This document shows positions 27,951 through 57,140 of a stretch of 64,000 bases of DNA, in pieces. The stretch is taken from IMG/VR virus record IMGVR_UViG_3300033571_011534, positions 11,732-75,731 of that record. The stretch is one strand, 5' to 3'. The DNA is from a virus. The translations under genes and the position numbers were made by a program. The notes beneath the pieces were generated by a model. That model was not told the DNA's origin. It was given only the letters and a program-made list of their open reading frames with translations, and searched no databases. Every line of letters begins with the position of its first letter. Within the stretch, counting starts at the first letter, position 1.

Positions 27951-28248
27951 GGAGATGAGGTAAAATATACCATGGACGCATTTTATATCATAACTATTTT
28001 ACTTCTTATGTCTCTATTGCTAGTCTCTACTAATCGAAAATAGACTCATGCTATAGGGGCATGTAAACTGTAGGGATCTTCTTACATCCTTTCTTAGGTC
28101 CTTACCGTCCTGGCTACGACGTAAAACTGGCCACAATCTGGGCCGAGGGCTTTATAACAAAATAATAAAGATTTAAGATCCTTTACGACACGCTCCCAAA
28201 ATGTCGTAGGGTTGGTGTATAGTAATACTACCTAACAGAAAGTAGAGT

Positions 28249-28812
28249 ATGGGAACTAGAGGAATAACAGAAGTAATTTACAATGGCGAGACTGTAGTTA
28301 GCCAGTATGGTCAATGGGACCACTACCCAAGCGGTCAGGGTATCACAGCGTTCAAGTTTCTACGCAGCCAAGAAAACATCGACAACCTAAAGAAAAACCT
28401 TAGCCTAGTCTATGTTCCAAGTGATGAGGAATACAAGTCTATTGTTAGCAAGTATTCTGATGAGCGTGGAATGATGACTATGGAGCAAGGTGAAGAGTAT
28501 AGCAAGATGTATCCAAGTCTTACTAGAGATACTGGTGCTGGTATCCTTGAGGTAATTGCTAACGCTACCAATCCAGTTCCGTTGTTCCTGGACCTAGAGT
28601 TCAAAAACGACAGACTGTTTTGTGAGGGTGTCTACACAATCAACCTAGATGACAACACTTTCACAACTAGATACAATCGCTATGAAAATGAAAATGATGA
28701 AGATACTTTGACTTTATCTTTTGAGCAGATTCTTTACACAGGTGAAGATGACTATCTGGAAAAAGCAAAGTGTGGAGTCTATCAGTATCTCAAGGCTGAG
28801 GCTTTAGCCTAA
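28249..28812 (+). CDS. Conserved phage protein
   Basis: MGTRG...QYGQWD.YPSGQG...CE..Y.I.LD pattern. Confidence 0.6.
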   Translation: MGTRGITEVIYNGETVVSQYGQWDHYPSGQGITAFKFLRSQENIDNLKKNLSLVYVPSDEEYKSIVSKYSDERGMMTMEQGEEYSKMYPSLTRDTGAGILEVIANATNPVPLFLDLEFKNDRLFCEGVYTINLDDNTFTTRYNRYENENDEDTLTLSFEQILYTGEDDYLEKAKCGVYQYLKAEALA

Positions 28813-29035
28813 CAAAGATACCCTGCCAGCTTGACAAACTGGTGGGGATCTGGTCGGGCCCAAAACTAGTAATTTGTCAAGTTTACGATTATAACAATTT
28901 TTCCCCTGAATTGTTATAAAAAAAATAGGGCGTGGCTCTTGATAATGTCGGAGGTATGCCCTATAATTTAGGAGTAGCAAAAACGACTACTAAATAGAAA
29001 AATCCTAGTGGAAAGACTAGGTGAAAGGAAGCAAA

Positions 29036-29191
29036 ATGGCAAATGTAATTGCCCCCGTTGTTGGCTCACAATACACTACTCAGAAATCAGGTGTTTCTGG
29101 GATTGTTCAGGAAGTAGTGGCAAATAAGACTGGCACTTATCGTGTTCGTCTTGATGTAAATGGTCAGCCACGCTGGACAACTATCAAGTAA
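29036..29191 (+). CDS. Small beta-rich protein
   Basis: GAAAGGA RBS; YTTQKSGVSG.V.EVV...RVRL...RWTT. Confidence 0.55.
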   Translation: MANVIAPVVGSQYTTQKSGVSGIVQEVVANKTGTYRVRLDVNGQPRWTTIK

Positions 29192-29299
29192 TAAATTAGT
29201 TTGAGGGGGTAGAGTTATTTATCCTTTCGCTACCCCCTCTCCTAAAATGTCTTACCCTGCCCCTATAATGTAATTACCCCAAATAGAAAGTAGAAACAA

Positions 29300-29746
29300 A
29301 TGGCTAGAACCCTGTCCGTAAAAGTTCCAACAAGCAAACTAATCGCAGACATTGAGGCAAGTATTGCTAAGATTGACGCAGACATTGAGGCGTATGCTGG
29401 AAAGCGTAAGCAGTATGAAGCAGACATAAAGCAGTATGAGAAAGACCTTGTTGCTTTTGCGATTGACGCACTAAAGAACCCAGACAACATTGGAACAGAA
29501 CACAACGCACTAATTCGCATCACAACCAACAACTACCGCAACGCTGTATCTGTTGATTTTGATACTGAGGCACTTGGCTTTCCAAAGCGACCAGAAGAGC
29601 CAGCCAGACCAAATGAAAAAAGTTATTTTGGTAGGGACTACACCACACGCAAGGAAATCCTAGAGAAGAACCTTCGTATTCTCAAGATGACCTCGCAAGA
29701 GGAAGTATCAGCGAGTTCATACTCATCTGTTATTGACCTAATCTAA
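29300..29746 (+). CDS. Hypothetical coiled-coil protein
   Basis: AGAAAGTAG RBS, promoter at 29246. Confidence 0.65.
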   Translation: MARTLSVKVPTSKLIADIEASIAKIDADIEAYAGKRKQYEADIKQYEKDLVAFAIDALKNPDNIGTEHNALIRITTNNYRNAVSVDFDTEALGFPKRPEEPARPNEKSYFGRDYTTRKEILEKNLRILKMTSQEEVSASSYSSVIDLI

Positions 29747-30164
29747 TCTTATTCGCACAAATACTGTGTAGGCAACTACTCTAAAGCTGAAGCGAATAAT
29801 CACCTGAGCAAGTGGCTAAACTGCTCACTAGATTTGGTAAGGCAGATGCTATTTGCTGTTGCTGAATAGAAGTGAGTGCTAGCACAAAAACTTCGTTCCT
29901 TACCTCCAAAGATTGATCCTGCTAATTGTAATGGTACACTGGGCTTGGATCAATACCCCCTGTTGCAATCAATTTGATAGATGCCCAGTTCGAACGAAGC
30001 ATCTCGCAGGGGGATCTTCCCATTTTTGGGTCGGGCCGCCGTTACCAAATTGTTATTTACGAAGACTAATTATTTTTTCCTAGATTCTTGACAAATGTCA
30101 GAGGGTGGCTGTAAAATAGTCTCAACAAACAAATAACTAATAACCCTAATAGAAAGTAGATAAA

Positions 30165-31166
30165 ATGGCACACTTGCTAGAACAGTCCGCAACAGGCGAA
30201 ACCGCTTTTGCTTCTTTTCGTGAGCCTGCTTGGCACCAGCTAGGCACAGTTTTCAATGAAGAAGTCTCAACTAACAAGATGTTGAAACTCGCACACCTTG
30301 ACAACTGGAATGTTCGCTTGGAAGATGTAGCGATTCCAAATGGTTTTGAGAGTGACAAGAATTATTTCTTCGTGACTAGAACTAACCCATTCAACAAAGA
30401 GCAAAATGATGTCCTTGGCGTAGTTGGTGAAAGATACAATGTTCTTCAGAATGAAGACTTATTTGATTTCGGTGATGCCCTGCTAGATGGTGGTCGCTGG
30501 GAAACTGCTGGTTCAATCAAGAACGGAAGACAGGTTTTCGGTTCTCTTGCTCTTGAGCGTGAAACAGTTCTTGACCCTAACGGCGTGTCAGATGTTGTAA
30601 AGTCTTATTTGCTAATCAACACTAGCCACGACGGCTCAGTTGCTATTCAGGCAAGTATCACACCTGTTCGTGTTGTATGTGCTAACACTCTAAATCTTGC
30701 TCTTGGTAAAGGCAACAGAGGTGTCAAGCAAACTTTCAAGATTCGCCACACCGCAACAGCATCTGGCAAGGTTGCTCAAGCTAGAGAGGCTCTTGGTCTT
30801 GCTAATAAGTATCTTGATGAGTTTGATAAGCTTGCTCAGTCTATGATTGCTAAAGAAATTACTAAGGCTCAGTTTGACAAGATTGTTGAGCTTGCTTATC
30901 CAAAGCCTGACAAGGACACAAAGGGTGCTGTCAAGAAGTGGGAAAACAAAACAGACATTCTTCAGGGAATCTATGTTGGCTCAACTAACGGAATGATTGC
31001 TGGAACTGCTTGGGGTGCTTTCAACGCTCTAACAGAGAGACTAGACTGGTATCGCACTGCTAGAGGTGGTTCTAACGAATCTATTCTAGCTGCTGCTTCT
31101 GGTTTTGACCCTGTGACTACCGCAGAAAAGAACAGACTGCTTCAGCTGGTCTTGGCTAACGCCTAG
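30165..31166 (+). CDS. DUF932 / TIGR03299-type phage-plasmid protein
   Basis: REPAWH.LG, LG.VG..Y...QN, ETAGS...G, SHDGS, TPVRVVC.NTL, RHT, GTAWG..NA.TE..D. Confidence 0.85.
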   Translation: MAHLLEQSATGETAFASFREPAWHQLGTVFNEEVSTNKMLKLAHLDNWNVRLEDVAIPNGFESDKNYFFVTRTNPFNKEQNDVLGVVGERYNVLQNEDLFDFGDALLDGGRWETAGSIKNGRQVFGSLALERETVLDPNGVSDVVKSYLLINTSHDGSVAIQASITPVRVVCANTLNLALGKGNRGVKQTFKIRHTATASGKVAQAREALGLANKYLDEFDKLAQSMIAKEITKAQFDKIVELAYPKPDKDTKGAVKKWENKTDILQGIYVGSTNGMIAGTAWGAFNALTERLDWYRTARGGSNESILAAASGFDPVTTAEKNRLLQLVLANA

Positions 31167-31357
31167 CCAAAAGTCCTGAGCATGACTAAAAACTGCTCTC
31201 CATTCATTTGCCAGGATCTAAAATTTTGGGCCGAGGGCCTAAAATAAACTTAATTAATAAAAAATCTTAATTACGAACTATCAAAAAAATTCGCAGAAAT
31301 CTTGATAAATGTCGGAGGGTCATGTCATAATAGACCTACCCTAAAGAAAGTAGACAA

Positions 31358-31552
31358 ATGCCCAAATACTATGTGAAGATGCGTATTGACTTTGCTGGTG
31401 AGCTAGAAGCAGAATCAGCTGAGGCAGCCGAACAACTAGCTTGGACTAGTTGGGGAGACTCTATGGACAACGACATAACCTATGATGGTGTTTATGACAT
31501 TGACGTAGAAGAGATTGAAGATGATGAGGAAGATGAGGAAGAAGATGAATAA
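31358..31552 (+). CDS. Small acidic protein, VEA.SEEEA-type family
   Basis: ELEAESAEAAEQLA; acidic tail. Confidence 0.55.
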   Translation: MPKYYVKMRIDFAGELEAESAEAAEQLAWTSWGDSMDNDITYDGVYDIDVEEIEDDEEDEEEDE

Positions 31553-31687
31553 GCACTTCCGCTGCCAGACTACAATTTCTTTTGACCAGGTATCAGATGG
31601 ATACTATGCACAATGCCCTAGTTGCGATGAAGACCTATTTAGTTTTGAGGTCGTATAATGTCAGAGGGTAGTGTTATAGTATCTACT

Positions 31688-31924
31688 ATGAAAGTATGCC
31701 CCAATCATTCAGGTAGTTTTGACTGTACCCCCTTTTGTCGTATCTGTGAGGGAAACCAGGAGTACGAGTCAAACGGCTACCTACCATGTAACAGATTCGG
31801 CCACTGTGGAGAATACATTGAGGAGGACATCTGGCATGAGGAGCTAGGCTTCTGTGTTGAATGTTCTCACTTATACTGGGACCAAGAGCTAGACCCATTT
31901 ACACTAGAGAGGATAGAGCAGTGA
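31688..31924 (+). CDS. Cys-rich hypothetical protein
   Basis: Leaderless start after TATAGT; CP.H...DC.PFC..C. Confidence 0.55.
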   Translation: MKVCPNHSGSFDCTPFCRICEGNQEYESNGYLPCNRFGHCGEYIEEDIWHEELGFCVECSHLYWDQELDPFTLERIEQ

Positions 31925-32053
31925 AAGAGTGGACCACCTTTATAAATAAATCTAATAAGAATGAGTTTGAGACTCTGCTAGCAGACATAATGTCAGAGGC
32001 TCTTGCTAAACTAGATACTGTCCCTGATGAAGAACTAGAAAGGCTAATTGACT

Positions 32054-32209
32054 GTGAGTAAAACTTGGCAAGTAGAATACAACGCTACCTATTGGGTAGA
32101 AGCAGAAACAGAAGACGAGGCTATTGAGTTGGCTATTGAATCACACGCTGACCTACCTAACGGAGACTGGGAAGCACACATTGAGCAGAAGTGGGAGACG
32201 AAAGCATAA
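32054..32209 (+). CDS. Small acidic protein, VEA.SEEEA-type family
   Basis: GTG start; WVEAETEDEAIELA. Confidence 0.5.
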   Translation: MSKTWQVEYNATYWVEAETEDEAIELAIESHADLPNGDWEAHIEQKWETKA

Positions 32210-32366
32210 TGGCTACCAGCGAAATGGAAAAGATTGGATACGAGAATGGTATTAGATTTGCTATTCATTCCATAGAAAAATCTCTAGACAATCCAGCACT
32301 AAACATCTTGACACCAAAGCAGAGTCTTGGTATCCTATTAGCATCACTAAGAATGGAGATTCAGTA

Positions 32367-32564
32367 ATGTCCTATGTATTAGAACAAACAAGCTATGTTT
32401 CAGAAGACGGAAACTTTGGAACAGGCTACCTACTAACATTCCCCTACAATGCGCTGACTGAAGAGCAGTGGGAAGTATTGGACATGCTAAACGATAGCTC
32501 TAAGATGGAGTATGCCCACGCTATCCTAAATGGACAGGCTGACCTATCGGAGTGGGAAGGCTAA
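32367..32564 (+). CDS. Hypothetical acidic protein
   Basis: TAATG coupling on both sides. Confidence 0.5.
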   Translation: MSYVLEQTSYVSEDGNFGTGYLLTFPYNALTEEQWEVLDMLNDSSKMEYAHAILNGQADLSEWEG

Positions 32565-32836
32565 TGGCCAAAGAGGTCTGGAGTGTGTCTGTCTACAAAG
32601 AAGGCATAATCGAAATAGACACTGATGAAATGACTATCGAACAGGCGGTAGAGGATTGGGTCTATGACCTGGAAGTTGACTACGACCTAATTGAAAGAGT
32701 GGAAGGCTAGTCCTTCCATTTTTTCGGTCGGGGCTGATCTTTAAATAAAATACTTATAAATAAAAAACCTTTAAGATCTCATTATTTTTTTTCCCAGATC
32801 CTTGATAATGTCAGTGGGTAGCAGTATACTATAGTC

Positions 32837-33223
32837 ATGAAAGTAAAGTTGATTGATCCAGAAAAAGCTAAAAACGTATTGGGACTAGACAAGGAAGAGC
32901 ACTGGGTTGCCCCTTCTGTTGTTGTCAACACCCCCAAAGGCCTAGCCGTAGTTTGCTATGAAGGTGTAGGCTGGTTCGAAAACGAGGGCAAGTACAAGAT
33001 CCTTGTTGGAGATGAATGGAATGATTGGGTAAAAGAAATCACTAAGGATGAACTTATTAGTATTATTTCTAATAAGGAAACTACCCTTCATCAGTTAATT
33101 GATCCGCACAATGATAGGACTAGATCTAATCTATCGATCTGGGAGAATCAGATTAAGAATACCCCGCAAAATGTCGTAGGGTTAGGTTATAATGAGGAAA
33201 AGAAAGAGGTGGCAAATGCCTGA
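32837..33223 (+). CDS. Hypothetical protein (possibly recently acquired)
   Basis: Leaderless after the 32807 promoter; contains GATC/TTAA unlike neighbours. Confidence 0.5.
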   Translation: MKVKLIDPEKAKNVLGLDKEEHWVAPSVVVNTPKGLAVVCYEGVGWFENEGKYKILVGDEWNDWVKEITKDELISIISNKETTLHQLIDPHNDRTRSNLSIWENQIKNTPQNVVGLGYNEEKKEVANA

Positions 33224-33395
33224 ATACAAAGTTCAAAGAGAGTACACCAACTGGGAAGAAATTACAGTTGAGGCAGATTCGGAAGAGCAAGCTTTAGAGA
33301 TTGCAGAGGACGACGAAGACTTATGGAACTATGCAATTGATGCTAGTTCATATAATTACACAGGTGAGACCTGGGTAGGAGAAGCAGATGCCTAA
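33216..33395 (+). CDS. Small acidic protein, VEA.SEEEA-type family
   Basis: MPEYKV...TVEADSEEQALEIA; GAGGTGG RBS. Confidence 0.55.
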   Translation: MPEYKVQREYTNWEEITVEADSEEQALEIAEDDEDLWNYAIDASSYNYTGETWVGEADA

Positions 33396-33558
33396 GCACA
33401 TGCATTACTTTAGCTATGGAGCCTGCATTCATTGCGGTAAGGCAGTCAACAAAGGCCTTGGCGTAGACCTGTACAAGGGAAAAAGGGTTTAAGAACCCTC
33501 TTGACAAAATCCCAGAATCCTGAGATAATAGTTTTACCCTAGAGAAAGTATAACCCCA

Positions 33559-33963
33559 ATGGAGAACACAAAAGTAGAAGCGCCCTACACAGAGTACCAA
33601 GGTTGGAACGAATGGGCAGATAAATACAAGCCTATCAAGAATCACTTACGCAATGACCCAGACGAAACCATGTTCGAGACCTATGGCGAAGAGGTTGAGT
33701 TTGTATCTAACTATGACAACAAGTATGTCTGGACCTATTTGCAAGGAGACATGTCTGACCTTATTTGTGCAGGCTATCACTATGTAAATAGATTAGGATA
33801 CTACATCTCTGAGGTACCGTGGACGAACGAGGATGACTATGTCCTGCTATCAGTAGAAGTAGAATGCAAATGCTACGACGAAGATGCATACGACGATGGT
33901 GGTTTTGGAAATCCAGAATGCCAAGAATGTGAAGGGTATGGCTATGTCACAAATTATGTATAG
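33559..33963 (+). CDS. Conserved phage protein
   Basis: YKPIKNH...FETYGEE...VWT...G.H.VNRLGYYI. Confidence 0.65.
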   Translation: MENTKVEAPYTEYQGWNEWADKYKPIKNHLRNDPDETMFETYGEEVEFVSNYDNKYVWTYLQGDMSDLICAGYHYVNRLGYYISEVPWTNEDDYVLLSVEVECKCYDEDAYDDGGFGNPECQECEGYGYVTNYV

Positions 33964-34315
33964 GAATAAGAACAGAGACAAGACCAAGGTCGTCTATGAC
34001 CTAAACATCTTTAAACGTGAGCTATTAAACGACGAAGGTGAATACGAGCACATGGGCCCCTGGTACATTCATATCTATGAATACGACGGTGGCAATATCG
34101 AAGAGGTAGGCGATCCGATTGAGTTGACGTCTGCTGAAGCTGATAGTCTTATTAATAATGACCCATACTTTCAAAACCATGAGCCAGACCTATGGTACGG
34201 CCTGGAGGGATTCATGTTTGAAAAGTGGGATGCATTGCCAGACAGGCTTAAGGCTGTATTTGAATGGTTACCCAAGTACAAGGAAGACATGGGGTATGGC
34301 CTTGTCAATGATTAA
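33944..34315 (+). CDS. Hypothetical protein
   Basis: Long ORF, start uncertain. Confidence 0.5.
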   Translation: MSQIMYRNKNRDKTKVVYDLNIFKRELLNDEGEYEHMGPWYIHIYEYDGGNIEEVGDPIELTSAEADSLINNDPYFQNHEPDLWYGLEGFMFEKWDALPDRLKAVFEWLPKYKEDMGYGLVND

Positions 34316-34472
34316 ACTAAGATTGATGCGTTGAGCCAAGCTCCGCATCATATGGATACGACAGTTAGGGGTAGCTAGCGTATCCAGGGGGTGTCAGGAC
34401 TTTTCCTACTTTCAGTCTTGACACCCCAACCAATTTGTGGGATAATGGGCACAGGAGAATAACCAATTGACA

Positions 34473-34667
34473 ATGAGTGATGAAGAAAAGGTCGCAGTAA
34501 AAATTACTGGACTTCTTTCTGACCATAGGCTAAACTTAGACAGGGTTGGCTTGTATGTGGCAAGAGAAGAACCAAGTAGCAATTACAGACGACTAATGAT
34601 TGTGGCAGAAGCCGCTGATGAGGAATGGGAGAGCAGGTATGGCAGACACGACAGCAACAAGCTATGA
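34473..34667 (+). CDS. Hypothetical protein
   Basis: AGGAG RBS; TTGACA-17-GATAAT upstream. Confidence 0.55.
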   Translation: MSDEEKVAVKITGLLSDHRLNLDRVGLYVAREEPSSNYRRLMIVAEAADEEWESRYGRHDSNKL

Positions 34668-34929
34668 GGCAAAGTGTGAAATCCTTGCTGATGTTTGGAT
34701 AGAGTATAGAGATGAAGAAGCCTTTCAGGAACTGATGGAGTTTGCTGACTTAGGCTTTCCACTTGCGTATGCTGTTCAGGGCGGTATCATAGAGAGCAAC
34801 GAACGAGTAGAAGAATTAGTAGAGGGAACTTTCACCTTGCTACTTCAGTTGCTCAAAGTTGATGACACTGGCTTTGACAGTATCACCCAGCTCTTTGACA
34901 AATCCGAAGAAGCAAATAAATCAAAATAA
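34639..34929 (+). CDS. Hypothetical protein, paralog of 39252..39527
   Basis: ILAD.W...RD...F....DLG.P.AY...TF.LLL...V.DTGF shared. Confidence 0.65.
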   Translation: MADTTATSYEAKCEILADVWIEYRDEEAFQELMEFADLGFPLAYAVQGGIIESNERVEELVEGTFTLLLQLLKVDDTGFDSITQLFDKSEEANKSK

Positions 34930-35177
34930 TTTTTGACCCAGCTTGACATTCGATCAAGACTGTGGTCGGGGTATGTTATCAAAATGTTATCAAACCACTA
35001 TTGACAAAACCTTTACGATGGACTATAATATTTCCCTGAAATTTGATCGAGGTCTATCCAAACCTCAAACCTTATATTGTTTAACATATTACGATCATCT
35101 GTAAAAAATCGCTGAAATATTTTACATATAGGTTTGGGTATTTTTGGCAATCTTATCAAACATGATATACTTATGCC

Positions 35178-35375
35178 ATGAGTCCAAGACATTTCTATAG
35201 AGCATACTATCCAGAAGAAGCCAAGAAGATGGATCAAGCATATGCTGAAGCTGGTGTTATTATTGTAGATACTGTTACTAGAGCATTTAAGAGGTTTGTT
35301 ATTCCTTTCTTTGTACCTGGCCTCAGGGAGACTAATAATACTGACAAAGATAATGCCAAGGGCATCAAAGAATAA
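35178..35375 (+). CDS. Hypothetical protein
   Basis: Leaderless after TGATATACT. Confidence 0.45.
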   Translation: MSPRHFYRAYYPEEAKKMDQAYAEAGVIIVDTVTRAFKRFVIPFFVPGLRETNNTDKDNAKGIKE

Positions 35376-35837
35376 CCCCATTCCCCCCTATATAAATAAC
35401 ATTACGAAGAACATAAAAAAATCGCTGAAATCTTTTTCTTTTGGCCAGATTTCATTTAAAATGGTTTAGTTTTTGATATTTTTATGGCCATATTTTATAT
35501 AAAAAATGCTTGACATTTGACGGATATTATGGTATAAAGGTTTGGCGTTTAAGGGGTGTAAGGGTTTGGGGTTTGGTAAATGATTACGAGTTTAAGTTAA
35601 TATGTGCTCCATTATCCACTATCCTCCATATCACTCCACTTTAACTCTATTAAACTTAATAAACAGTAAGATCTTTTATCCAAAACATGGTCTCTAAACA
35701 TGCTCTAAATAGCCACAGAATCGATTTTGAGGGGGGTATACAAACCTTCGTATCTTGGATGTGGGGCTATGGGGATATCTGGATATCAGGCTTATTTCTC
35801 TATAGTGTTATTGGTTATATAGGGGATGGTGGTTTGA

Positions 35838-36419: not shown

Positions 36420-36451
36420 ATGTTAAATTATACCATTTCTGGACAAGCTCA

Positions 36452-48567: not shown

Positions 48568-48667
48568 TTTTCTCCTTACACAAGTAAAATCATGTCTCTA
48601 TTATGAAACACAGTCTTATTATATCAGAAAAAATGGGCCTTTTTACAACATGCCCAGGTTGGTTTAG

Positions 48668-49057
48668 CTACTTAATTTCGATTTTCTTTGGCTTCTTTTC
48701 TTCTGGAACACGCTTGTACAAATCAATGTACAGAATTCCGTCAATCATCGATGCCCTGTCTACCTCAAAATATTCTGGCAGACTGAATGATCGTGTGAAC
48801 TTGCGACCAGCAATGCCCTTGTAGACATAGTTGGCCCCTTCGTCCTCCTGGCGCTCACCCTTAACCGTTAGCACATCCTTCTCTACTGAGATATCGATGC
48901 CATACTGATTAAATCCAGCAACAGCAAACTCTAGGACGTAGTGTTCGTCTGAGATTTTGTTGATGTTGTATGGTGGGTAAGATGCCTTTACTGGCTGTGT
49001 GAATACCTTCTCAAATTCCTGAGCAAGGCTTCCGAATGGGTCATTAAAAATAACCAT
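48668..49057 (-). CDS. Small heat-shock protein Hsp20 (IbpA-like)
   Basis: YPPYNI, E.AVAGF, GIAGR.F.RSF.L, A...DGIL. Confidence 0.92.
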   Translation of the reverse strand: MVIFNDPFGSLAQEFEKVFTQPVKASYPPYNINKISDEHYVLEFAVAGFNQYGIDISVEKDVLTVKGERQEDEGANYVYKGIAGRKFTRSFSLPEYFEVDRASMIDGILYIDLYKRVPEEKKPKKIEIK

Positions 49058-49108
49058 TTATATCATCTCCTTATATTAAGCGAGTTAATTGCCCCCAAAT
49101 GGCAGGCA
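49058..49108 (-). promoter_or_regulatory. ROSE-like RNA thermometer leader
   Basis: CUC-G-CUUA pairs with UAAG-GAG (SD), bulged G, UCGCU motif; upstream GC hairpin. Confidence 0.55.
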
Positions 49109-49713: not shown

Positions 49714-49945
49714 CTGGTTTACCGCCCTCTCTAACAAGTAATACGATAGCACCATTGTCCTCTAGTGCCTTTTTAACTCGTATCATATACTCTACTGCCT
49801 TTATCTTATCCTCACCAGTTAAAGACATGAACTTCTTCTCACTAGCCCTTACTGTTATGAAATGATCGTTGTCGATGATGTCAAGACTAAAGTTTGATGG
49901 AGGATTAATAGACCTAAAAGCTCTTCTCATTTGATCTGTATACAT
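49706..49945 (-). CDS. Hypothetical protein
   Basis: Operon chain after whiB. Confidence 0.6.
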   Translation of the reverse strand: MYTDQMRRAFRSINPPSNFSLDIIDNDHFITVRASEKKFMSLTGEDKIKAVEYMIRVKKALEDNGAIVLLVREGGKPDA

Positions 49946-49946
49946 A

Positions 49947-50237
49947 TTATTTGCCCTTATCCATTGTTAAAACTTCCCAGGTTTTGGCCCAGTCTTTTTT
50001 ATTTCTATGACGATTAAACTCTTTTGAAATTTTTCCAGATTCTAGATACACTCCACCCCAGACACCCCATTCTTTTTGAGAGATGCCAACAGCAAAGCAC
50101 TGCCTCACAACTGGACAGCCAGAGCAAAGCTGATCTATTGCTGGACGTAAGAGTTCATCTTCTTCGTATGTATCAAAAAATAAATTAGTATCATAATCAC
50201 GACAAGAGGAATCATCTTTCCACTTGCCACTATCCAT
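49947..50237 (-). CDS. whiB: WhiB-family Fe-S transcription factor
   Basis: W....C...D..LFF, C..CPV...C, GVWGG. Confidence 0.9.
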   Translation of the reverse strand: MDSGKWKDDSSCRDYDTNLFFDTYEEDELLRPAIDQLCSGCPVVRQCFAVGISQKEWGVWGGVYLESGKISKEFNRHRNKKDWAKTWEVLTMDKGK

Positions 50238-50448
50238 TTTTGTTTAGAAGTCCTTCTGGTATTGACCAACCATTTTCAGATGGAGAGTATCTTTTCTGAA
50301 CATACCATTTTCCAGAAACCCTTACACCATCACGCCTCTTCCAGGCAAAGTGGTCAGGAATTCTTAGTAGGACATCCCAGCCATCCCAAGATAGTCTTTT
50401 GTTATTCTTAACAATTTCTTCCATTTTTTCAAGAGACTTTACTAACAT
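50230..50448 (-). CDS. Hypothetical protein
   Basis: LSWDGWDV motif; operon chain. Confidence 0.6.
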   Translation of the reverse strand: MLVKSLEKMEEIVKNNKRLSWDGWDVLLRIPDHFAWKRRDGVRVSGKWYVQKRYSPSENGWSIPEGLLNKNG

Positions 50449-50508
50449 GATTTTCCCTATATTTTTATTTTTATTATTTAGCTTTTGCACATTCCGCTAG
50501 CTAAAATA

Positions 50509-50856
50509 TTAATATCTAAAAACGTCGTTCTTGATATCTTTTGCAGATAAGAAGTTTACTATTTCTGGAATAGCTTCTTTGTGGTTACAAAAGTATGCGA
50601 ACTGACTAATTACTGGGTGGTTTGATTTAAACCACTTTAGAGGAACACGAATAAGCTTTGTCTTGATCCCTCTTGATTTAAAATTAGACACATTCAGATA
50701 CTCTTCTGCCATCTGCGTTACACGATATGGCCCTGCAGAAAAAATGATGAACTCTTTATCATCCGAATCCTTCATTGAATACAGCGTTTTTGCCATTCCA
50801 GACAGGAATATGTTATAGTCATTGAAGCTTTTACTTCCATGAATTCCCAAGATCAT
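50509..50856 (-). CDS. Hypothetical protein (SLOG/YspA-like)
   Basis: I.I.GS..F.DY N-terminus. Confidence 0.4.
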   Translation of the reverse strand: MILGIHGSKSFNDYNIFLSGMAKTLYSMKDSDDKEFIIFSAGPYRVTQMAEEYLNVSNFKSRGIKTKLIRVPLKWFKSNHPVISQFAYFCNHKEAIPEIVNFLSAKDIKNDVFRY

Positions 50857-51256
50857 TTCTGTCCTGCCCTTCGTTTAGTTTGTCTACAATAAACATCATG
50901 TCTTTTAATTCTACCTTATCCATGGCCATTATGTCAAGTGTTTTTGTAGAACTTTCATCTACAACTCCACCCACAAGGTTTGCGGAATACAGAGAGTTGT
51001 TCCTTATCCAGTAGGCCTTGCCCTTAAAGAACAGGATCTTCTGGTGCCTGCTATCAAAGAATCGTGTAGACTGGGTGACCATTTCTTTTCTGTTTTCCTT
51101 TGCAGACATTGCAAAAATATATGGCCCAACCACGCTAAATATATGGCTTTGTCTATAACGAACCTTCATGACTGAGTCTTTAGTTACTTTTGAAACTGCC
51201 TTGCTTAATATAAAAGTTCCAACGATTGCGACAATTGCGCCTACTAGATATTCCAT
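50831..51256 (-). CDS. Membrane-anchored hypothetical protein
   Basis: N-terminal TM; GGAG RBS. Confidence 0.55.
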   Translation of the reverse strand: MEYLVGAIVAIVGTFILSKAVSKVTKDSVMKVRYRQSHIFSVVGPYIFAMSAKENRKEMVTQSTRFFDSRHQKILFFKGKAYWIRNNSLYSANLVGGVVDESSTKTLDIMAMDKVELKDMMFIVDKLNEGQDRNDLGNSWK

Positions 51257-51267
51257 ATTGCTCCAGG

Positions 51268-51606
51268 TCACCTATTGTTTTCTAAAAATGCACGGAGTAT
51301 ATCCTTTAAAGCATTTCTGTGGTTTATGTCTAGCTTCTCTATTTCCTGGACATCAAATGCCTTTTTTAGCAAATGAACTGTAGGGTTTGCCTCAAGAACA
51401 TTAAGTTCTAAAAACCCTAGTTCCCAGAGCTTCATGATCTCTTGATAAAAAAGATCATTAAACCTGTCATACATTTCAGGATTCTGTTCTTTAAGTTTAC
51501 CTGTAGCAGAGTAAAGCATTTCTCCAGTGTCAGAGTCTATTCCAGCAAACTCAATTGCTCCAGAGAGAATTAGTTTTGCTATGTATTCGTCATCGCTTGT
51601 ACTCAT
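51268..51606 (-). CDS. Hypothetical protein
   Basis: AGGAG RBS. Confidence 0.55.
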   Translation of the reverse strand: MSTSDDEYIAKLILSGAIEFAGIDSDTGEMLYSATGKLKEQNPEMYDRFNDLFYQEIMKLWELGFLELNVLEANPTVHLLKKAFDVQEIEKLDINHRNALKDILRAFLENNR

Positions 51607-51624
51607 TAAGACTCCTAAAGTAGA

Positions 51625-51867
51625 CTAGTCTTCAGATTGCTGATTTTTAGCATGGAGCTTTTCACGCTCATCAACTATTTGATAGGCAAACTTCATCATT
51701 TTGTCATACCCAACTGCATTGTTAACAATTCCTTCGTAGTGGTGAGCACAGAACAAAAGCTCTCCAGAAACGCCGATTGCCTTTACATAGGCCTGCGCAC
51801 CGCAAGACGCCGTGTCACACCTATCATTGGCATTTAGACTGGTTTCTTCCACAACCTTGGTTTTCAT
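51625..51867 (-). CDS. Conserved actinobacterial zinc-binding protein
   Basis: DRCD..CGAQAYV...GEL.FCAHH. Confidence 0.65.
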   Translation of the reverse strand: MKTKVVEETSLNANDRCDTASCGAQAYVKAIGVSGELLFCAHHYEGIVNNAVGYDKMMKFAYQIVDEREKLHAKNQQSED

Positions 51868-51869
51868 TT

Positions 51870-52052
51870 TTACTTTCCTTTATCTGTTGAGTAAAATCCA
51901 CTACCGTTAAATGTTACACCAACAGATGAATAAATTCTAACTAGTTTTTTATTACAGTTGTCACAAAAATAATCTGGCTCTGGTTCTGAAATACCCCGCA
52001 CTTTTACATGCGGGGCATCACAGTCTCCACAGCGATATTCGTATACCGCCAT
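51870..52052 (-). CDS. FmdB-family zinc-ribbon protein
   Basis: YEYRC..C...C..C...F.GSGFY.TD. Confidence 0.85.
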   Translation of the reverse strand: MAVYEYRCGDCDAPHVKVRGISEPEPDYFCDNCNKKLVRIYSSVGVTFNGSGFYSTDKGK

Positions 52053-52057
52053 GTCAG

Positions 52058-52384
52058 TTACTTCTTTGGGGAAGCCTTTTTAGTTGAAGCTGTGGTCTTC
52101 TTTGCAACTGGCTTCTTAACATCTGAAGATGCAACCTTTCCAGTTCCCGCAGACTTCTGAACGGCCTCTACAACGTCTACAATTGCCTTTCCAAGGTCCT
52201 TCTTATTAGACGGAGTGACGTTCGCATAAGCTAGAGAAGATCCTCCTACTGCCAATGCAGCAGCTGCGAGAGTAAGAACCTGCTGAGCTACATCGTCGCT
52301 AATTGCTCCAATAATAACCAATACAGGAACTGCTGCAGCAACAAGTCCATAAATTGACTTTCGAACTTCTGGTGTTAGATTCAT
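52058..52384 (-). CDS. Holin
   Basis: RK.IYG..AA..P.L...G, two TM helices, basic tail; next to endolysin. Confidence 0.65.
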   Translation of the reverse strand: MNLTPEVRKSIYGLVAAAVPVLVIIGAISDDVAQQVLTLAAAALAVGGSSLAYANVTPSNKKDLGKAIVDVVEAVQKSAGTGKVASSDVKKPVAKKTTASTKKASPKK

Positions 52385-52488
52385 AATTAATTATTCCTTT
52401 GTTTTAATTAAAATAGTTATTGATTACAAACTCTTAAGAAAGCAATCAATAGAGCAATTGTACCATCTGGTGGGTGGGTATGTCAAGC

Positions 52489-53295
52489 CTATGGAAGCTT
52501 TATTACTTGCCCAACAAGTATTAGATTTGGGTTTTTAATGCCATTAATCTCTACAAGGGTTGCCACAGTTGTCTTATACTTGCGAGCAATGCCAGTAAGG
52601 GTTTCTCCATGAAGAACGCTGTGAGTCTTTGCTGTCTTTTTTGCTGCAGGCTTTGCTGCAGGTTTTGGCTTTTTAGCTGCAGGCTTGGCACCGCCTGATA
52701 GCGACGCTGGTGGTGTAGTCTTAACTGATGCACCAGGAGTCACTGGAGAGCTGGCCTTATTAGAGCTAGACGAAGCAACATCTGCATAGGAAGCAGCACC
52801 GTTTAGTGCAATTACCGCATTCATAAACTCAATTGGTTCAACAAATCCCTTTCCATTGTCTGACCATCCGTGCGACTTGCCTTTCCAGATTTCCCAGTGC
52901 AAATGCACACCAGTGCTCATACCACTGGTGCCCATCACTCCAAGAACATCTCCAGCCTTTACCTTATCTCCCTGCTTAACGGTCATAGATCCTTTAACAA
53001 GGTGCGCATAAAGAGAGCTGTAAAACTCTCCATTAATATTGTGGGTAATTTTCACGTAGTAGCCAAATCCGCTAGGCTCTCCGTTATCCTTCTTTGTTTT
53101 TGATGGACCTGCATAGGTCACAGTTCCAGCATATGGGGCGTAAATCTTATTATCTTTTTTATTAGTATAGATAATGTCCGTGCCGTTATGATGTTTCTTT
53201 GTTTTATGTACTGGGTGTATCCTCCAGCCCATATAGCTTGTTACTTTCCAGTCCTTTCCTGGGTTCCCAGAAAGGGGTAATCTTGCTGTAGTCAT
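52489..53295 (-). CDS. Endolysin, M23 peptidase + LysM
   Basis: HNGTD, YAHL, HLHWE; C-terminal V..GETL.GIA..Y....L...NGI.NPN.I..GQ.I.LP. Confidence 0.9.
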
Positions 53296-53365
53296 GTGTA
53301 AATCTCCTTTTAAAACAATTATATCATTAATAATAAAAAATCCGATCAATGGTATAATTGATTAT

Positions 53366-54064
53366 ATGTCTTTAAGTCTAGCAAACGCACCCAGAATTAT
53401 TCCTGGTACCTATGGTAGGGCCAAGATTTCCTTTTCTTCACAAGAGCAGTGCTATTTTTTGCATTACGATAATGTTCAGTGGATGGGGGTTCGTTTAGAC
53501 TTTTCGGATGCCTTTGATAACTTATATTCTCAATACGAGATTGCTCAGGGCCGTGTACTAATTACTGGGCTTGGCTTTGGTATTCTAACAAAAGCCCTAG
53601 ATGCAAAAGAAAGCGTAGAGTCAATTACCGTTATTGAAAAAGAGCAAGATATTATTGACACTTTCCTAAAGAATAATAGGATAAGTAGTAAAGTTAAAAT
53701 TATCAAAGAAGATGCTACAACTTACACAACAGAAGAAGAGTATGATTGCCTGTTGCCAGACCATTACGAAAAGCAGACTTGGGAGTGGAAGGTAAAAGAT
53801 ATGAACGCCATTTCGAAAAGAATAAAGCACAAGTATTTCTGGCCATGGTCTTTAGAAATGCTGTTCTTTAAAAAGGTTTACCCAAGAGATCATCATATAC
53901 AAGACATCTGTGTAGATCTTGCAGAAAATCCCTCAGAGGTCTATAAAAAATGGCAAGACTTTATTAAAGAATATTTTGAAGGAAACGAGTACATTTTAGG
54001 AATTGAGCAAGAAAAAATTATTCAATATTTGTACTTGTATAAAGAGCACTATCCTTACAGATAG
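53366..54064 (+). CDS. Class I SAM-dependent methyltransferase / spermidine-synthase-like
   Basis: VLITGLGFG, TVIE, DA, YD. Confidence 0.65.
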   Translation: MSLSLANAPRIIPGTYGRAKISFSSQEQCYFLHYDNVQWMGVRLDFSDAFDNLYSQYEIAQGRVLITGLGFGILTKALDAKESVESITVIEKEQDIIDTFLKNNRISSKVKIIKEDATTYTTEEEYDCLLPDHYEKQTWEWKVKDMNAISKRIKHKYFWPWSLEMLFFKKVYPRDHHIQDICVDLAENPSEVYKKWQDFIKEYFEGNEYILGIEQEKIIQYLYLYKEHYPYR

Positions 54065-54071
54065 CAGTTAA

Positions 54072-54395
54072 TTACTGTTGCTCTTCGCCAGCTTCAAAAG
54101 CAAACTCTTCTGATTCTTCTTCAACAACTGGCTCTTCAGATGGTTCCGAGTTGCCATTGTTTTGACCAATCAGAATACCAGCTAGCGTTCCAGTAATGAA
54201 AGTCGCAATGCTTCCAAGAACATTGAAAAACATTTTATCATTTTCAGACTGAGCGCCAATTGGCTGAGTTACAAAAATCAATGCATATAGAATACCAACT
54301 GCAGTCATTAGCAAGATGGATCCTAGAATTAGTCCTAGAGAAAACTTTAGTCTTGCATCTAGTTCTGCTGCGCTGTATCTACGCCTTCTACTCAT
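54072..54395 (-). CDS. Two-TM membrane protein
   Basis: Two hydrophobic helices, acidic tail. Confidence 0.6.
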   Translation of the reverse strand: MSRRRRYSAAELDARLKFSLGLILGSILLMTAVGILYALIFVTQPIGAQSENDKMFFNVLGSIATFITGTLAGILIGQNNGNSEPSEEPVVEEESEEFAFEAGEEQQ

Positions 54396-54690
54396 GTACG
54401 TGTTCCTCTACTGTTTCAGACTCTTCTTCTACGACTACCTCTTCGGAGCTAGTTGATTCGTCTACGTTTTGATCTTCTTCTATTGTATCAGATTCTGGAG
54501 CAAATGGGTCGTACCCAAGAATATCCTCTAGGCATGTTCCAGAGGCATCACAAATTGGTGGCTTGCATTCTGCTTTTTCCCAGTTTTCTGGGTCTTGGCA
54601 TGGGTATCTGTAGTGACCATCATAGCCACAACCAGAAAGGGTAACTGCCAAGAAGGTAGCAGAAATGATTCCTAATACTTTCTTTTTCAT
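54388..54690 (-). CDS. Lipoprotein
   Basis: LSGC lipobox; YRYPCQDP.NW...C.PP.C...GTC. Confidence 0.7.
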   Translation of the reverse strand: MKKKVLGIISATFLAVTLSGCGYDGHYRYPCQDPENWEKAECKPPICDASGTCLEDILGYDPFAPESDTIEEDQNVDESTSSEEVVVEEESETVEEHVHE

Positions 54691-54900
54691 AGTTATATTA
54701 TATCCTTCTTTATTAGTCGTCTTTGTTTCTAATTGGATATGTGATAATCCAGATTGCTAGAGTCATCAGGATAAGCATACCAGTTAGGTCCTTGGCGCTT
54801 CCCTCCAAAACTAGCCAGGCAACAACCATTCCAAGCAAAGTCCAAGACTGATCTATGATGTCTTTAAAAAGACCCTTTAAGAACTTCTTCATTTTTCCTC

Positions 54901-55302
54901 CTACTTTTTATTTCGTTTTGACTTTAACAAATCAAAATCTTTAACCTTGGTTTCTCCAAGGTAGTCCCAGGCGTAGCCCTCATCAATCATTATTTGATTA
55001 ATTGACTTAGCTGATCCATCTAGAAAGACCCATCCAAGAACTCTTCCATATTTTTCTGAAGAGTCTGGCTTTTCTGTTTTTATAACAACGTCTTTTGCCG
55101 ACGAAATAGCCTTTTTTAAAAACTCTTTTGACTCAAGGCCTAGAGCTTTTTCCGCTTTGTCCTTTGTCCTGGACTCTGGTGTATCTATTCCAGCAAGTCT
55201 AATCCTTTGAGAATAGGCAATGCTAAAGCCCAAATCTATCTCTGCATCAAAGGTGTCTCCGTCAACAACGTTGACAACTCTTTTTACTCTATACTCATAC
55301 AT
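54901..55302 (-). CDS. Thermonuclease (SNase-like)
   Basis: VVDGDT, RLAGIDTPE, KYGR.L, N..M...G.A. Confidence 0.9.
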   Translation of the reverse strand: MYEYRVKRVVNVVDGDTFDAEIDLGFSIAYSQRIRLAGIDTPESRTKDKAEKALGLESKEFLKKAISSAKDVVIKTEKPDSSEKYGRVLGWVFLDGSAKSINQIMIDEGYAWDYLGETKVKDFDLLKSKRNKK

Positions 55303-55303
55303 T

Positions 55304-57040
55304 CTATGATCCGTTCCTTATGTTAATTGTTGTAGCTATACCGCTTATTGAAACTGCTGATAAAGCTGCTTGAACGGCAACGATTGCTGTAACAACTACC
55401 TTTTCTGAGGTCTCTCTAACTTGCGGACTCATATCTGCTCCAGCATTCCCCAAGAAGTTAACAAGCTCAACTGCACCGCCCAAAGCATCTCCCAGTAGAG
55501 GAATAGCTGCAAGGGACTCGTCAAGAACAATGTCATCTTGTTGTGCAGCAACCATAAGAGCTTCGAGTGCCTGCTCGTATTCCTCTGAACCAGGCTCAGC
55601 GGTTTCAAAAACTTCAAGGGCTGCTTCAACTAGGGCCTCTGCCTGCTCAGCTGAGAGGTCAGTAGCTACAATTTCATCTAGCTCTACCGACATAAGCTCC
55701 TCTGCAGAAATATCTACTGGTAAATCTTCCGCAGATGTGATAGACTCTTCTTCAGAAGGAGATGGTTCAGGTGAAGGCTCAGGTAAAGGCTCAGGCTCTA
55801 AAGGTTCTGGAGAGGGCTCTACAGGTTCTGTGGTTGGCTCTTCTGGTTGTGTTGGTTCCTCTGGCTGTGGTGTGGTCGGTTCTTCTGGCTCTGGCACCAA
55901 CGGCGGTTCTGGTTCTGGGGTCACTGGTATGGTTGGCGGTACGACAGGTTCGACTGGCACGACTGGAGGTTGAGTAGGCTCTGGAGCAGGCTCAACTGGA
56001 ATATTTTCATAAGTAATAAGAAGAATTAAAACCTTGGGCGTTCCAGGAGCTGGATCGTTTTCAAAGGTTGTGTTTGAAACTTCAACAGTTGCAGAAGTTT
56101 GTCCAGCTAGTAATTCAAAAAGAATGGAAGAAACTTCTTGTCCACGAGTTCCATCATTTGGATCTCCATAATATCCAACAGCACTTGCAATTCTTTGGCC
56201 TTCAGGAGCAACTACTTGAACAAATGACCCCTCGTTTGTAACTGTTGCCCCCTCTGGAATTGCTGGTGGAGTTGGTGTGGGCGTAGGCTCTGGGGTGGGG
56301 GTTGGCTCAGGAGTAGGTTCTGGTGTAGGCTCTGGAGTAGGCGTAGGCGTTGGCTCAGGGGTAGGTGGATTAAATGGAGCCTCTTCTGTGGGCTCTGGTG
56401 CTAGAACTGGAGGCGCTACCGTCTCCTCAATTCCATAGGTTTCGAAGTCAACGATCTGTCCGTTGTTTAGACGAACTCCAGTCCGTGGATTGTTCTGCGG
56501 ATACTCTGGTCCATCTAGCGTGTAAGCCATTGCAACTGTGCCATCTGAAAGAATAGCAGCAGTAATCACAATGCGTGTTGGCTCTGGGGTATTCTGTAAC
56601 CAAATTGGTCTAGCTGAAATATCTACCTGGAATCCACCATCCGATGAGCGAATGATAAGATGTTCATCGTTTCTCCACTGCGGGTAAACGACCCAGTCAA
56701 AAGAGTACAAGGAGATAGACGGAGTTGATGGGTAAGTCCAGTAGGTTCCATCTGGCCTACCAAAGGTAATTACTGAGTTGGTAGTGGCAAAAATATTATT
56801 GTAAACAACCCCATCGAAGGTTACGGTGGTGGTTAATGGAATTTGGTACGATACATCGTCTCCACCACAAGTGCGAATTTCTGTAACGACTGGTTCGGTT
56901 GAAGCGTTTTGCTGTGCAGCTGCTACTGCAGCAACTTGACCTGGGCTAACGCAGCTGGCATTAGCAACTTCCGATATGCCAAGTACTGGCAAGAATGCTA
57001 AAGCAAGGGCTGCCGTGACTCTTCCTACTTTGTTCTTAAT
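55304..57040 (-). CDS. Secreted/membrane-anchored Pro-rich surface protein (probable ATT start)
   Basis: Signal peptide complete only from ATT at 57040; PEPT/PTPE repeats; DPAPG..K.L lectin-like module; hydrophobic C-terminus. Confidence 0.65.
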   Translation of the reverse strand: MKNKVGRVTAALALAFLPVLGISEVANASCVSPGQVAAVAAAQQNASTEPVVTEIRTCGGDDVSYQIPLTTTVTFDGVVYNNIFATTNSVITFGRPDGTYWTYPSTPSISLYSFDWVVYPQWRNDEHLIIRSSDGGFQVDISARPIWLQNTPEPTRIVITAAILSDGTVAMAYTLDGPEYPQNNPRTGVRLNNGQIVDFETYGIEETVAPPVLAPEPTEEAPFNPPTPEPTPTPTPEPTPEPTPEPTPTPEPTPTPTPPAIPEGATVTNEGSFVQVVAPEGQRIASAVGYYGDPNDGTRGQEVSSILFELLAGQTSATVEVSNTTFENDPAPGTPKVLILLITYENIPVEPAPEPTQPPVVPVEPVVPPTIPVTPEPEPPLVPEPEEPTTPQPEEPTQPEEPTTEPVEPSPEPLEPEPLPEPSPEPSPSEEESITSAEDLPVDISAEELMSVELDEIVATDLSAEQAEALVEAALEVFETAEPGSEEYEQALEALMVAAQQDDIVLDESLAAIPLLGDALGGAVELVNFLGNAGADMSPQVRETSEKVVVTAIVAVQAALSAVSISGIATTINIRNGS

Positions 57041-57140
57041 TTTATATCACTCCACATTAAGACAAATAAACTACTTTGTAATATTATAAAGTGATTATAT
57101 AAAAAATAGGCAGTTTTATATCATGCCTAGGATATTTTTA

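Follow-up and report, generated by a model that had tools for sequence, protein, structure and literature searches.

The DNA considered here, a 64,000-nt window covering positions 11,732 to 75,731 of IMG/VR virus record IMGVR_UViG_3300033571_011534, carries a small pseudoknot-like sequence five times. This raises the question of whether the five sites belong to one RNA family and, if so, what such an element does for its carrier. An earlier note, made from the window sequence alone, had proposed five sense-strand copies of a roughly 27-nt H-type pseudoknot with covarying stems, lying in 3' untranslated regions (UTRs). All five sites are present in the sequence as that note described them, and a single pattern fits all five. 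We find that they are members of a widespread, uncatalogued RNA family with an H-type pseudoknot fold. We also find that the element is a gene-end element, as judged from its strand, its placement, a 5-nt limit on its approach to stop codons, its asymmetric position relative to tRNAs and the enrichment of U-runs directly behind it.

Fold and covariation of the element

A member of the family comprises, from 5' to 3', a stem S1 of 4-5 bp closed by a C-G pair, a first loop (L1) consisting of C, the U-RRRY-A strand of a 6-bp stem S2, a second loop (L2) of one nucleotide, the returning strand S1', a third loop (L3) of the form nnAAAC, and the returning strand S2' (U-RYYY-A), giving a knot of about 28 nt. 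This is the overall layout of the earlier scheme, with the exception of its 'CU' linker, whose U pairs with the base that follows S2' as originally drawn. That base is an A in four of the five window copies and pairs with the linker U; thus, S2 has 6 bp and L1 is a single invariant C. For the window scan, we used a strict descriptor consisting of CCU, a fully paired S1 (4/4) with a C-G closing pair, a 1-nt L2, a 6-nt L3 ending in AAA[C/A], and an S2 with at least 5 of 6 pairs. It returned exactly five copies, compared with a mean of 0.01 and a maximum of 1 in 300 dinucleotide-preserving shuffles of the window. The other 11.7 kb of the 75.7-kb genome to which the window belongs held no additional copy, and relaxed descriptors applied across that genome yielded, beyond the five copies, noise only.

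The covariation of the stems was assessed with two complementary scans of viral contigs. A scan in which S2 was fixed (CCTGAGCANGNNNNNAAACTGCTC) recovered 141 copies at 120 or more loci, and in essentially all 141 the three free S1 pairs are complementary while representing many different sequences. Likewise, a scan in which S1 was fixed (AGAC/GTCT) and the inner four positions of S2 were left free recovered 110 distinct copies, again at 120 or more loci. All four free S2 positions pair in 99 of these 110 (about 2% would be expected by chance), and they do so through more than 30 combinations, such as GAGC/GCUC, GGGU/GCCC, AAGC/GCUU, GAAC/GUUC and AGGU/GCCU. In an alignment of 103 sequences (A1), which includes the window copies, standard pairs fill 96.7% of cells and the covariation score is 0.476. 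Shuffling the pairing partners reduces the score to 0.184, with none of 500 shuffles reaching the observed value, and sliding the partners reduces it to 0.13 or less. Both stems covary, so that the covariation proposed from five copies is borne out in the larger alignment. G.U pairs are frequent (18 at column 12-26, for example) and are compatible with the sense RNA strand only. Taken singly, the stems have marginal energies, from -0.2 to -3.2 kcal/mol for S1 and from -4.7 to -6.6 kcal/mol for S2, and nested folding is unable to represent the knot. Since the two stems cannot coexist as nested helices, the fold is an H-type pseudoknot.

Several bases are constant across the family. In all 103 sequences of A1, S1 closes with C-G and L1 is C, and the AAA of L3 is invariant; all three were set in both collecting patterns, so that their constancy in A1 arises by construction. 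Independent support for the closing C-G, the L1 C and AAA comes only from the five window copies, which were not collected by pattern. The other conserved features are an A/U second pair in S1, a purine-rich 5' strand of S2 and the AAAC of L3. L2 is a single variable base, which is A or U in 92% of copies. If solved compact knots such as that of beet western yellows virus (BWYV) are a guide, the conserved bases are those that would be expected to make triplex contacts. No named Rfam family corresponds to the element, which the earlier note had likewise been unable to match: Rfam 15 gave no match either at gathering score or at E values up to 10, including in search spaces of 81-101 nt, and no description of the knot in phages or bacteria was found in the literature.

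All five window copies lie on the coding strand of the neighbouring gene block, in agreement with the sense-strand placement first claimed for them. The designation as 3' UTR elements is appropriate for copies 3-5; long intergenic gaps surround copies 1 and 2. Copy 1 (28106-28133, plus strand; CGUC-C-UGGCUA-C-GACG-UAAAAC-UGGCCA) is composed of S1 28106-28109, L1 C 28110, S2 28111-28116, L2 28117, S1' 28118-28121, L3 28122-28127 and S2' 28128-28133, with 4/4 pairs in S1 and 6/6 in S2, one of them G.U. It lies 155 nt past the nearest open reading frame (ORF) of at least 50 aa, in the 299-nt gap between a GP88-family gene (27231-27950) and an ORF at 28249. Copy 2 (29800-29827, plus strand; UCAC-C-UGAGCA-A-GUGG-CUAAAC-UGCUCA) consists of S1 29800-29803, L1 29804, S2 29805-29810, L2 29811, S1' 29812-29815, L3 29816-29821 and S2' 29822-29827, and pairs at 4/4 positions in S1 (one U.G) and 6/6 in S2. 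It begins 53 nt past the nearest ORF of at least 50 aa (29300-29746), within a 419-nt intergenic gap, and about 260 nt upstream of a promoter-like site at 30088-30117. The remainder of that gap (29828-30164, plus strand) contains no convincing ORF and no Rfam match; it ends with this promoter-like site, a near-consensus TTGACA-18-TAAAAT, and then the DUF932 gene.

Copies 3-5 directly follow genes. Copy 3 (31172-31199, plus strand; AGUC-C-UGAGCA-U-GACU-AAAAAC-UGCUCU) is made up of S1 31172-31175, L1 31176, S2 31177-31182, L2 31183, S1' 31184-31187, L3 31188-31193 and S2' 31194-31199, and it starts 5 nt past the TAG (31164-31166) of the DUF932 gene (30165-31166). On the minus strand, copy 4 (48634-48661; CAAC-C-UGGGCA-U-GUUG-UAAAAA-GGCCCA) comprises S1 48661-48658, L1 48657, S2 48656-48651, L2 48650, S1' 48649-48646, L3 48645-48640 and S2' 48639-48634, with 5/6 pairs in S2, and starts 6 nt past the TAG (48670-48668) of hsp20 (48668-49057; Pfam HSP20). 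Copy 5 (57107-57135, also minus; AUAUC-C-UAGGCA-U-GAUAU-AAAAC-UGCCUA) has a 5-bp S1 (57135-57131), followed by L1 57130, S2 57129-57124, L2 57123, S1' 57122-57118, L3 57117-57113 and S2' 57112-57107. With the 5-bp S1 counted, it starts 5 nt past the TAA (57143-57141) of katG (57141-59336; Pfam peroxidase), a stop that is doubled by a second in-frame TAA. The spacings of 5, 6 and 5 nt agree with the 5-6 nt originally given for three copies. The U-runs reported after two copies are also present: UUUUUU directly follows S2' in copy 4 (48633-48628, minus strand), succeeded by an extended -10-like box, TGATATAAT, and in copy 5 (57106-57101, minus strand), succeeded by TATAAT-like boxes. As a separate observation, the 11-mer GGGCCGAGGGC occurs twice in the window (0.3 occurrences expected), at 28140-28150 and 31228-31238 on the plus strand, which is 6 nt downstream of copy 1 and 28 nt downstream of copy 3, respectively. 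Within 31224-31244 it takes part in a 9-bp hairpin with a GAG loop.

Carriers and placement at gene ends

Among the 141 phage copies of the S2-fixed scan, the distance from the stop codon of an upstream long ORF to S1 has both a hard floor and its mode at 5 nt, with 19, 11, 6, 9 and 8 copies at 5, 6, 7, 8 and 9 nt and none at 1-4 nt. Distances to the start codon that comes next are widely spread and cluster only loosely, at 16-30 nt. The ribosome holds 5 nt of mRNA 3' of the A-site codon, and its helicase site lies near +11 from the P-site codon. Given that the 5-nt floor equals the length of ribosome-held mRNA, the knot lies as near to the stop codon as it can without being unwound by the terminating ribosome.

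The neighbourhood of the knot is asymmetric in other ways. When copies away from locus edges are considered, a same-strand feature lies within 300 nt upstream in 204 of 248 phage copies (82%) and within the same distance downstream in 163, and among the discordant cases 67 have the upstream feature and 26 the downstream one (p=2.5e-5). Knots between convergent genes outnumber those between divergent genes by 12 to 6 in phages and 15 to 4 in bacteria, or 27 to 10 when pooled. A same-strand tRNA begins 3-13 nt downstream of the knot in 19 of the 141 copies, and none of the 141 lies within 100 nt downstream of a tRNA. U-runs directly follow 21 of 134 copies (16%), compared with a background of 2%, an approximately 8-fold enrichment, and the first 7 nt that follow the knot (bases +25 to +31) are U-rich with 1-9% G. 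Second hairpins are not enriched downstream: the minimum free energy of the following 35 nt is -3.08 kcal/mol, compared with -2.96 kcal/mol for shuffles, and only 9 of 134 copies reach -8 kcal/mol or lower. Many copies reside in compact operons, 16-30 nt ahead of the next start codon. The genes upstream of the knot, in a random sample of 20, include five encoding DUF932 proteins, three encoding major head proteins and one encoding a Gp2.5-like single-stranded DNA-binding protein (SSB). Major head and SSB-type genes classically bear 3' stabilisers.

The position behind the DUF932 gene allows the same site to be compared across related genomes. Of 80 relatives of the DUF932 gene upstream of copy 3, 52 have a canonical knot after the stop codon, at 5-9 nt in 50 of them and at 12 and 16 nt in the other two. 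These 52 knots have at least 8 different S1 and at least 5 different S2 sequences. A variant with a flipped, G-C closing pair occupies the position in a further 8, bringing the knot to 60 of 80 overall. In the remaining 20, the position is taken by a strong ordinary hairpin of -25 to -40 kcal/mol (z from -2.3 to -7.2), and about 5 of these 20 hairpins also have a U-run after the stem and resemble canonical intrinsic terminators. Since every DUF932 relative has either a knot or a hairpin, selection keeps a stable structure at this position, and the knot and the terminator-type hairpin are interchangeable there.

Two side observations concern these loci. The flipped variant has a 5-bp S1 closed by G-C, as in ACAUG-C-UGGGCA-A-CAUGU-AAAAC-UGCC, and lies in the first 40 nt past the DUF932 stop at L368, L370, L371, L376, L378, L379, L395 and L398; thus, the otherwise invariant C-G closing pair is not absolute. 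In addition, a long hairpin with a TTGACA(A) loop is conserved within the first 50 nt past the stop in knot-less relatives (L380-L384, L392-L394, L401, L417, L418 and L421), and a TTGACA box lies about 10-20 nt after the knot in many other DUF932 relatives. This box may be a -35 element or a binding site.

The carriers extend well beyond the actinophages to which the earlier note had looked: the family is not specific to these and is found in hundreds of unrelated phages and mobile elements, from many bacterial phyla. A BLAST search with one copy against cultured phages revealed the knot in Roseobacter phage SIO1, Lentibacter phages, Amigo-group Arthrobacter phages, crAss-like phages, Staphylococcus phage StB12, Clostridium tetani phages, Lactobacillus phage phig1e and others. 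Three of these agree with the gene-end picture on the basis of curated annotation. In SIO1, the knot lies about 9 nt past the ribonucleotide reductase gene; in Arthrobacter phage Amigo, the knot begins 8 nt past the SSB gene and is followed 2 nt later by tRNA-Gly; and in StB12, the knot occupies the gap ahead of the scaffold gene, upstream of a canonical terminator. A pattern scan of bacterial genome contigs identified at least 120 loci in many phyla. The carriers listed include Saccharibacteria, other Patescibacteria, Clostridia, Lactobacillales, Actinomycetes, Chloroflexi, Cyanobacteria, Desulfobacterota, Aminicenantes, Bacteroidota, Verrucomicrobia, and Alpha-, Beta- and Gammaproteobacteria. 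A BLAST search of E. coli genomes with a 32-nt consensus-like copy produced one partial chance match and is uninformative as to the absence of the family. Metagenome-assembled genomes (MAGs) of Saccharibacteria, a member of the candidate phyla radiation (CPR), are over-represented among the bacterial carriers listed (L122, L125, L134, L159, L166, L174, L181, L189 and L199). The Saccharibacteria copies that were checked adjoin mobile-element genes (Replic_Relax, DUF3768, DUF2958, DUF7249), often at convergent gene ends.

The bacterial loci also led to a new finding of the present analysis, a micro-gene that terminates inside the knot. In about 25 among the 120 bacterial loci listed, a stand-alone micro-gene has as its stop codon the UGA contained in the knot's CCUGAGCA. 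These loci span several phyla (L124, L128, L133, L136, L151, L152, L158, L162, L167, L170, L175, L177 [2742-2804, minus strand], L184, L185, L194, L198, L204, L205, L213, L220, L231 and L240). The micro-gene has a strong ribosome site, a -10-like box in several loci, and a 20-codon ORF that reads M-K-R-F-x-[VI]-P-R-[VIT]-[AS]-H-C-x-x-G-C-x-x-x-S, and a terminator hairpin often follows the knot. The codons vary synonymously at third positions, indicating that the peptide is coding and under selection. The peptide matches no NCBIfam family, its exact sequences are absent from the protein collection searched, and the neighbouring genes are unrelated and not conserved. Because the UGA lies inside the knot, each round of termination requires the ribosome to melt it, so that a ribosome-linked function may be involved.

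Possible functions of the knot

Of the three functions that had been suggested for the element, the genomic context favours the two that act at gene ends, an exonuclease block or a non-canonical terminator, over a protein-binding tag. The reading that we favour, with some reserve, is that the knot is a compact mechanical road-block, needing no protein, that both sets and shields the 3' end of the upstream message. Phages and mobile elements would place the knot on the mRNA just behind the stop codon and never closer than 5 nt, at which distance or beyond a terminating ribosome would not need to melt it. The functional unit would be the stacked, triplex-braced knot, with L3 placed in the minor groove of stem 1. 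After the transcript ends or is cut just downstream, this unit may stall 3'-to-5' exonucleases. The cut would probably be made by RNase P where a tRNA follows, and by an endonuclease acting in the G-poor, AU-rich linker where a gene follows. In Amigo, for instance, the mRNA would end in the knot once RNase P had cut. Where a U-tract lies directly after stem 2, as in the hsp20 and katG copies, the knot could double as the hairpin of an intrinsic terminator. Exonuclease blocking, linker cleavage and termination are all roles that we infer from sequence and context.

If the proposed role is true, the knot would be among the most widespread structured phage RNA elements that are missing from Rfam and from the literature searched. 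It would represent a protein-independent module of 28 nt that determines where mRNAs end and how stable individual cistrons are, would explain differential expression in compact phage operons and in mRNA-tRNA co-transcripts, and would extend the compact road-block pseudoknots of eukaryotic RNA viruses (coremin, luteoviral) to bacteria. It could also be used in synthetic biology, as a tiny and portable part with which to stabilise or insulate mRNAs, and in the annotation of uncultured phage genomes, as a marker of strand and gene end.

Several considerations weigh against a road-block at the 3' end. RNase R can degrade structured RNA, so that a knot of 10 bp is perhaps an incomplete block, and the nearest characterised relatives, the coremin or xrRNA-C knots, block a 5'-to-3' enzyme and not a 3'-to-5' one. 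No called stop codon adjoins copies 1 and 2, and the placement of many copies in compact operons would, taken alone, suit equally well an element that protects or insulates the downstream gene from its 5' side. The ORF calls behind the context statistics are longest-ORF heuristics and therefore crude, and the collecting patterns preset part of the motif, so that frequencies are biased; all counts are lower bounds. Lastly, the melting of the knot at micro-gene stops is unexplained by a simple 3'-cap model. A more sweeping version of the proposal strikes us as doubtful. According to this version, the knot would be a universal, protein-free 'full stop' of bacterial mRNAs, a mechanically hardened triplex pseudoknot with which phages and mobile elements across most bacterial phyla punctuate polycistronic transcripts and cap message ends. 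It would be of the same structural kind as the exonuclease-resistant coremin knots of eukaryotic RNA viruses, whether by shared origin or by convergence, and bacteria would use it in the 20-aa micro-gene with its embedded UGA, linking the fold to ribosome termination.

We think it unlikely that the knot instead faces the other way, as a coremin-like bulkhead against 5'-to-3' decay that stops RNase J or 5'-end-dependent RNase E scanning and thereby shields or insulates the downstream cistron. Coremin and its Watson-Crick variant, xrRNA-WCC, are found in beny-, cucumo- and other RNA viruses (Dilweg et al., PMC6546385, PMC10520033, PMC10321173), and coremin reportedly stalls both an exonuclease and ribosomes. 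The phage knot is close to both forms in architecture. Each is a compact H-type knot of about 20-28 nt, mostly located behind coding regions, with a 4-bp S1 closed by C-G, a single-nucleotide pyrimidine L1 of restricted identity (C or U in coremin, C in the phage knot), and a UUAAAC-type spacer directly before S2' (PMC10321173, PMC10520033). A shield of this kind would also be consistent with the many copies found immediately upstream of a ribosome-binding site, at 16-30 nt from the start codon. However, the S2 of the phage knot has 6 Watson-Crick or wobble pairs, compared with the 3 partly non-canonical pairs of coremin. Its hp1 loop is 8 nt long (C-URRRYA-W) with an invariant U rather than G at the second position, whereas the coremin consensus is YGAD (4 nt) or YGNNAD (6 nt) (PMC10520033). 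The second hairpin, hp2, which coremin requires for Xrn1 resistance, is absent downstream of phage knots, as the folding energies given above indicate. Moreover, the carriers of the knot are double-stranded DNA phages, mobile elements and bacteria, and bacteria are not known to have Xrn1. The carriers include MAGs labelled Gammaproteobacteria, Polynucleobacter and Coxiellaceae and, in the BLAST summary only, two Vibrio phage records; RNase J is generally not known from these lineages. The context likewise indicates that it is the upstream RNA that is protected and not the downstream RNA. The same-strand association is stronger upstream (67 versus 26 discordant cases; 27 convergent versus 10 divergent), the sharp distance limit concerns the upstream stop codon and not the downstream start, and 19 of 141 knots directly precede tRNAs, whose leader RNase P removes anyway.

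It is quite unlikely that every copy of the knot, with or without a U-tract, acts by itself on the host RNA polymerase as a factor-independent terminator or attenuator. The knot shares with intrinsic terminators and 3' stabiliser stem-loops (repetitive extragenic palindrome [REP]-type and phage late-gene hairpins) a niche just past stop codons and, in some copies, a U-tract; related phages bear such hairpins at the same DUF932 position, canonical terminators among them. The 8-fold enrichment of U-runs right after S2' and the promoter-like sequence that precedes the next gene after all five window copies would also be expected of terminators. Nevertheless, 84% of copies have no U-run, and in the window a U-tract follows copies 4 and 5 but none of copies 1-3. 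With the next ribosome site at 16-30 nt or a tRNA at 3-13 nt, there is no room for a promoter before the next gene or tRNA, so transcription must read through such knots. By the usual rules, a hairpin made of the 6-bp S2 and its 11-nt loop is a weak terminator, and the knot, with its fixed size and its strongly conserved loop and closing bases, is unlike the free-sequence, GC-rich hairpin of a terminator or stabiliser.

It appears improbable that the knot is a translation-linked device, forming a barrier at the mouth of the mRNA channel. Such a barrier would hold the ribosome in place or halt it at the stop codon, prevent read-through, post-termination sliding or re-initiation, or respond to termination at UGA. 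The -1 frameshifting knots of luteoviruses and enamoviruses, namely those of BWYV, pea enation mosaic virus 1 (PEMV-1) and sugarcane yellow leaf virus (ScYLV), are about 28 nt long and resemble the phage knot in size, topology and short S1, in an L1 of 1-2 nt that contains C, in a one-base junction and in an A-rich L3 suited to a minor-groove triplex. They start 5-8 nt past the codon in the ribosomal A site, and the 5-nt floor of the phage knots equals the downstream footprint of the ribosome. Coremin-type knots stall ribosomes and stimulate frameshifting in vitro (PMC10321173), and the conserved 20-aa ORF of the micro-gene ends at an in-knot UGA in about 25 of the bacterial loci listed. What precedes copies 3-5 by 5-6 nt, however, is a stop codon, often doubled in the family as in the TAA TAA of copy 5, rather than a slippery heptamer X XXY YYZ. 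The phage knot is not followed by an extended reading frame, its S2 has 6 bp as opposed to 3, and it is present in multiple copies per genome behind unrelated genes. Its spacing is a floor with a tail to tens of nucleotides rather than a fixed distance, copies 1 and 2 and many others lie far from any stop codon, and S2 variants replace UGA with UGG, UAG or UAA, so that an in-knot stop is not a general feature.

Recognition of the knot by a ligand or a protein, either as a mini aptamer of the preQ1-I type or as a tag for a conserved host or phage protein, is very improbable. The near invariance of the L1 C, the closing C-G and AAAC could be read as a binding signature, and the preQ1-I aptamer (RF00522), an H-type knot of about 34 nt, has the same topology and a comparable A-rich ...AAAAC-U... 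tail that pairs back into a hairpin loop. Yet the RF00522 covariance model gave no match at E values up to 10 in a search space of 80-100 nt, and the single variable A/U base of L2 includes no ligand-binding C and leaves no room for a ligand pocket. The conserved bases are already expected from triplex contacts of the BWYV type. Phage knots are not found in the 5' leaders of queuosine genes but follow DUF932, hsp20, katG and other unrelated genes, in carriers that span many phyla without a shared phage protein. The element is not a member of the coremin, luteoviral or preQ1-I families, but works like a compact triplex knot.

Three further candidates were rejected: a tRNA-acceptor mimic (knot followed by ACCA) shows no CCA signal, since the A after S2' (66%) is explained by its pairing with the U of S2 and is followed by C in 45%, then by U (47%) or C (34%), then by A (40%) or U (40%); a frameshift or read-through recoding signal lacks a slippery site, has tandem stops and has no ORF that continues; and a self-cleaving ribozyme with a pistol-like core has no Rfam match and would require a larger element.

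The window genome and its other features

The window is the final part of a single 75.7-kb contig with a G+C content of about 41%. Its products are tail-fibre and head-decoration proteins, a GP88-family protein, a DUF932 protein and Hsp20, and it further encodes a 731-aa catalase-peroxidase (KatG), an M23 peptidase, a ribonucleotide reductase and four tRNAs. This gene content indicates that the window derives from a phage genome. The window DNA is present almost whole in one metagenome run, possibly its own source run, and two freshwater runs contain about one-fifth of its sampled words. None of the public runs listed as containing positions 27000-32000 was an RNA run. A megablast search of positions 27000-34000 against cultured phages gave no match, and the proteins nearest to the DUF932 protein of the window (55% identity) are from Streptomyces and other actinophages.

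Two of the genes that carry the knot are worth describing for other reasons. The full-length KatG (731 aa; 57141-59336, minus strand) is an unusual auxiliary gene for a phage, and it lies directly downstream of the four-tRNA cluster (59459-60054, minus strand) on the same strand. Directly upstream of the hsp20 start, at 49052-49105 on the minus strand, is a sub-threshold match to the ROSE_3 RNA thermometer (23.8 bits, E 0.18, compared with a gathering score of 43), which may represent a heat-sensing leader on a phage small heat-shock gene.

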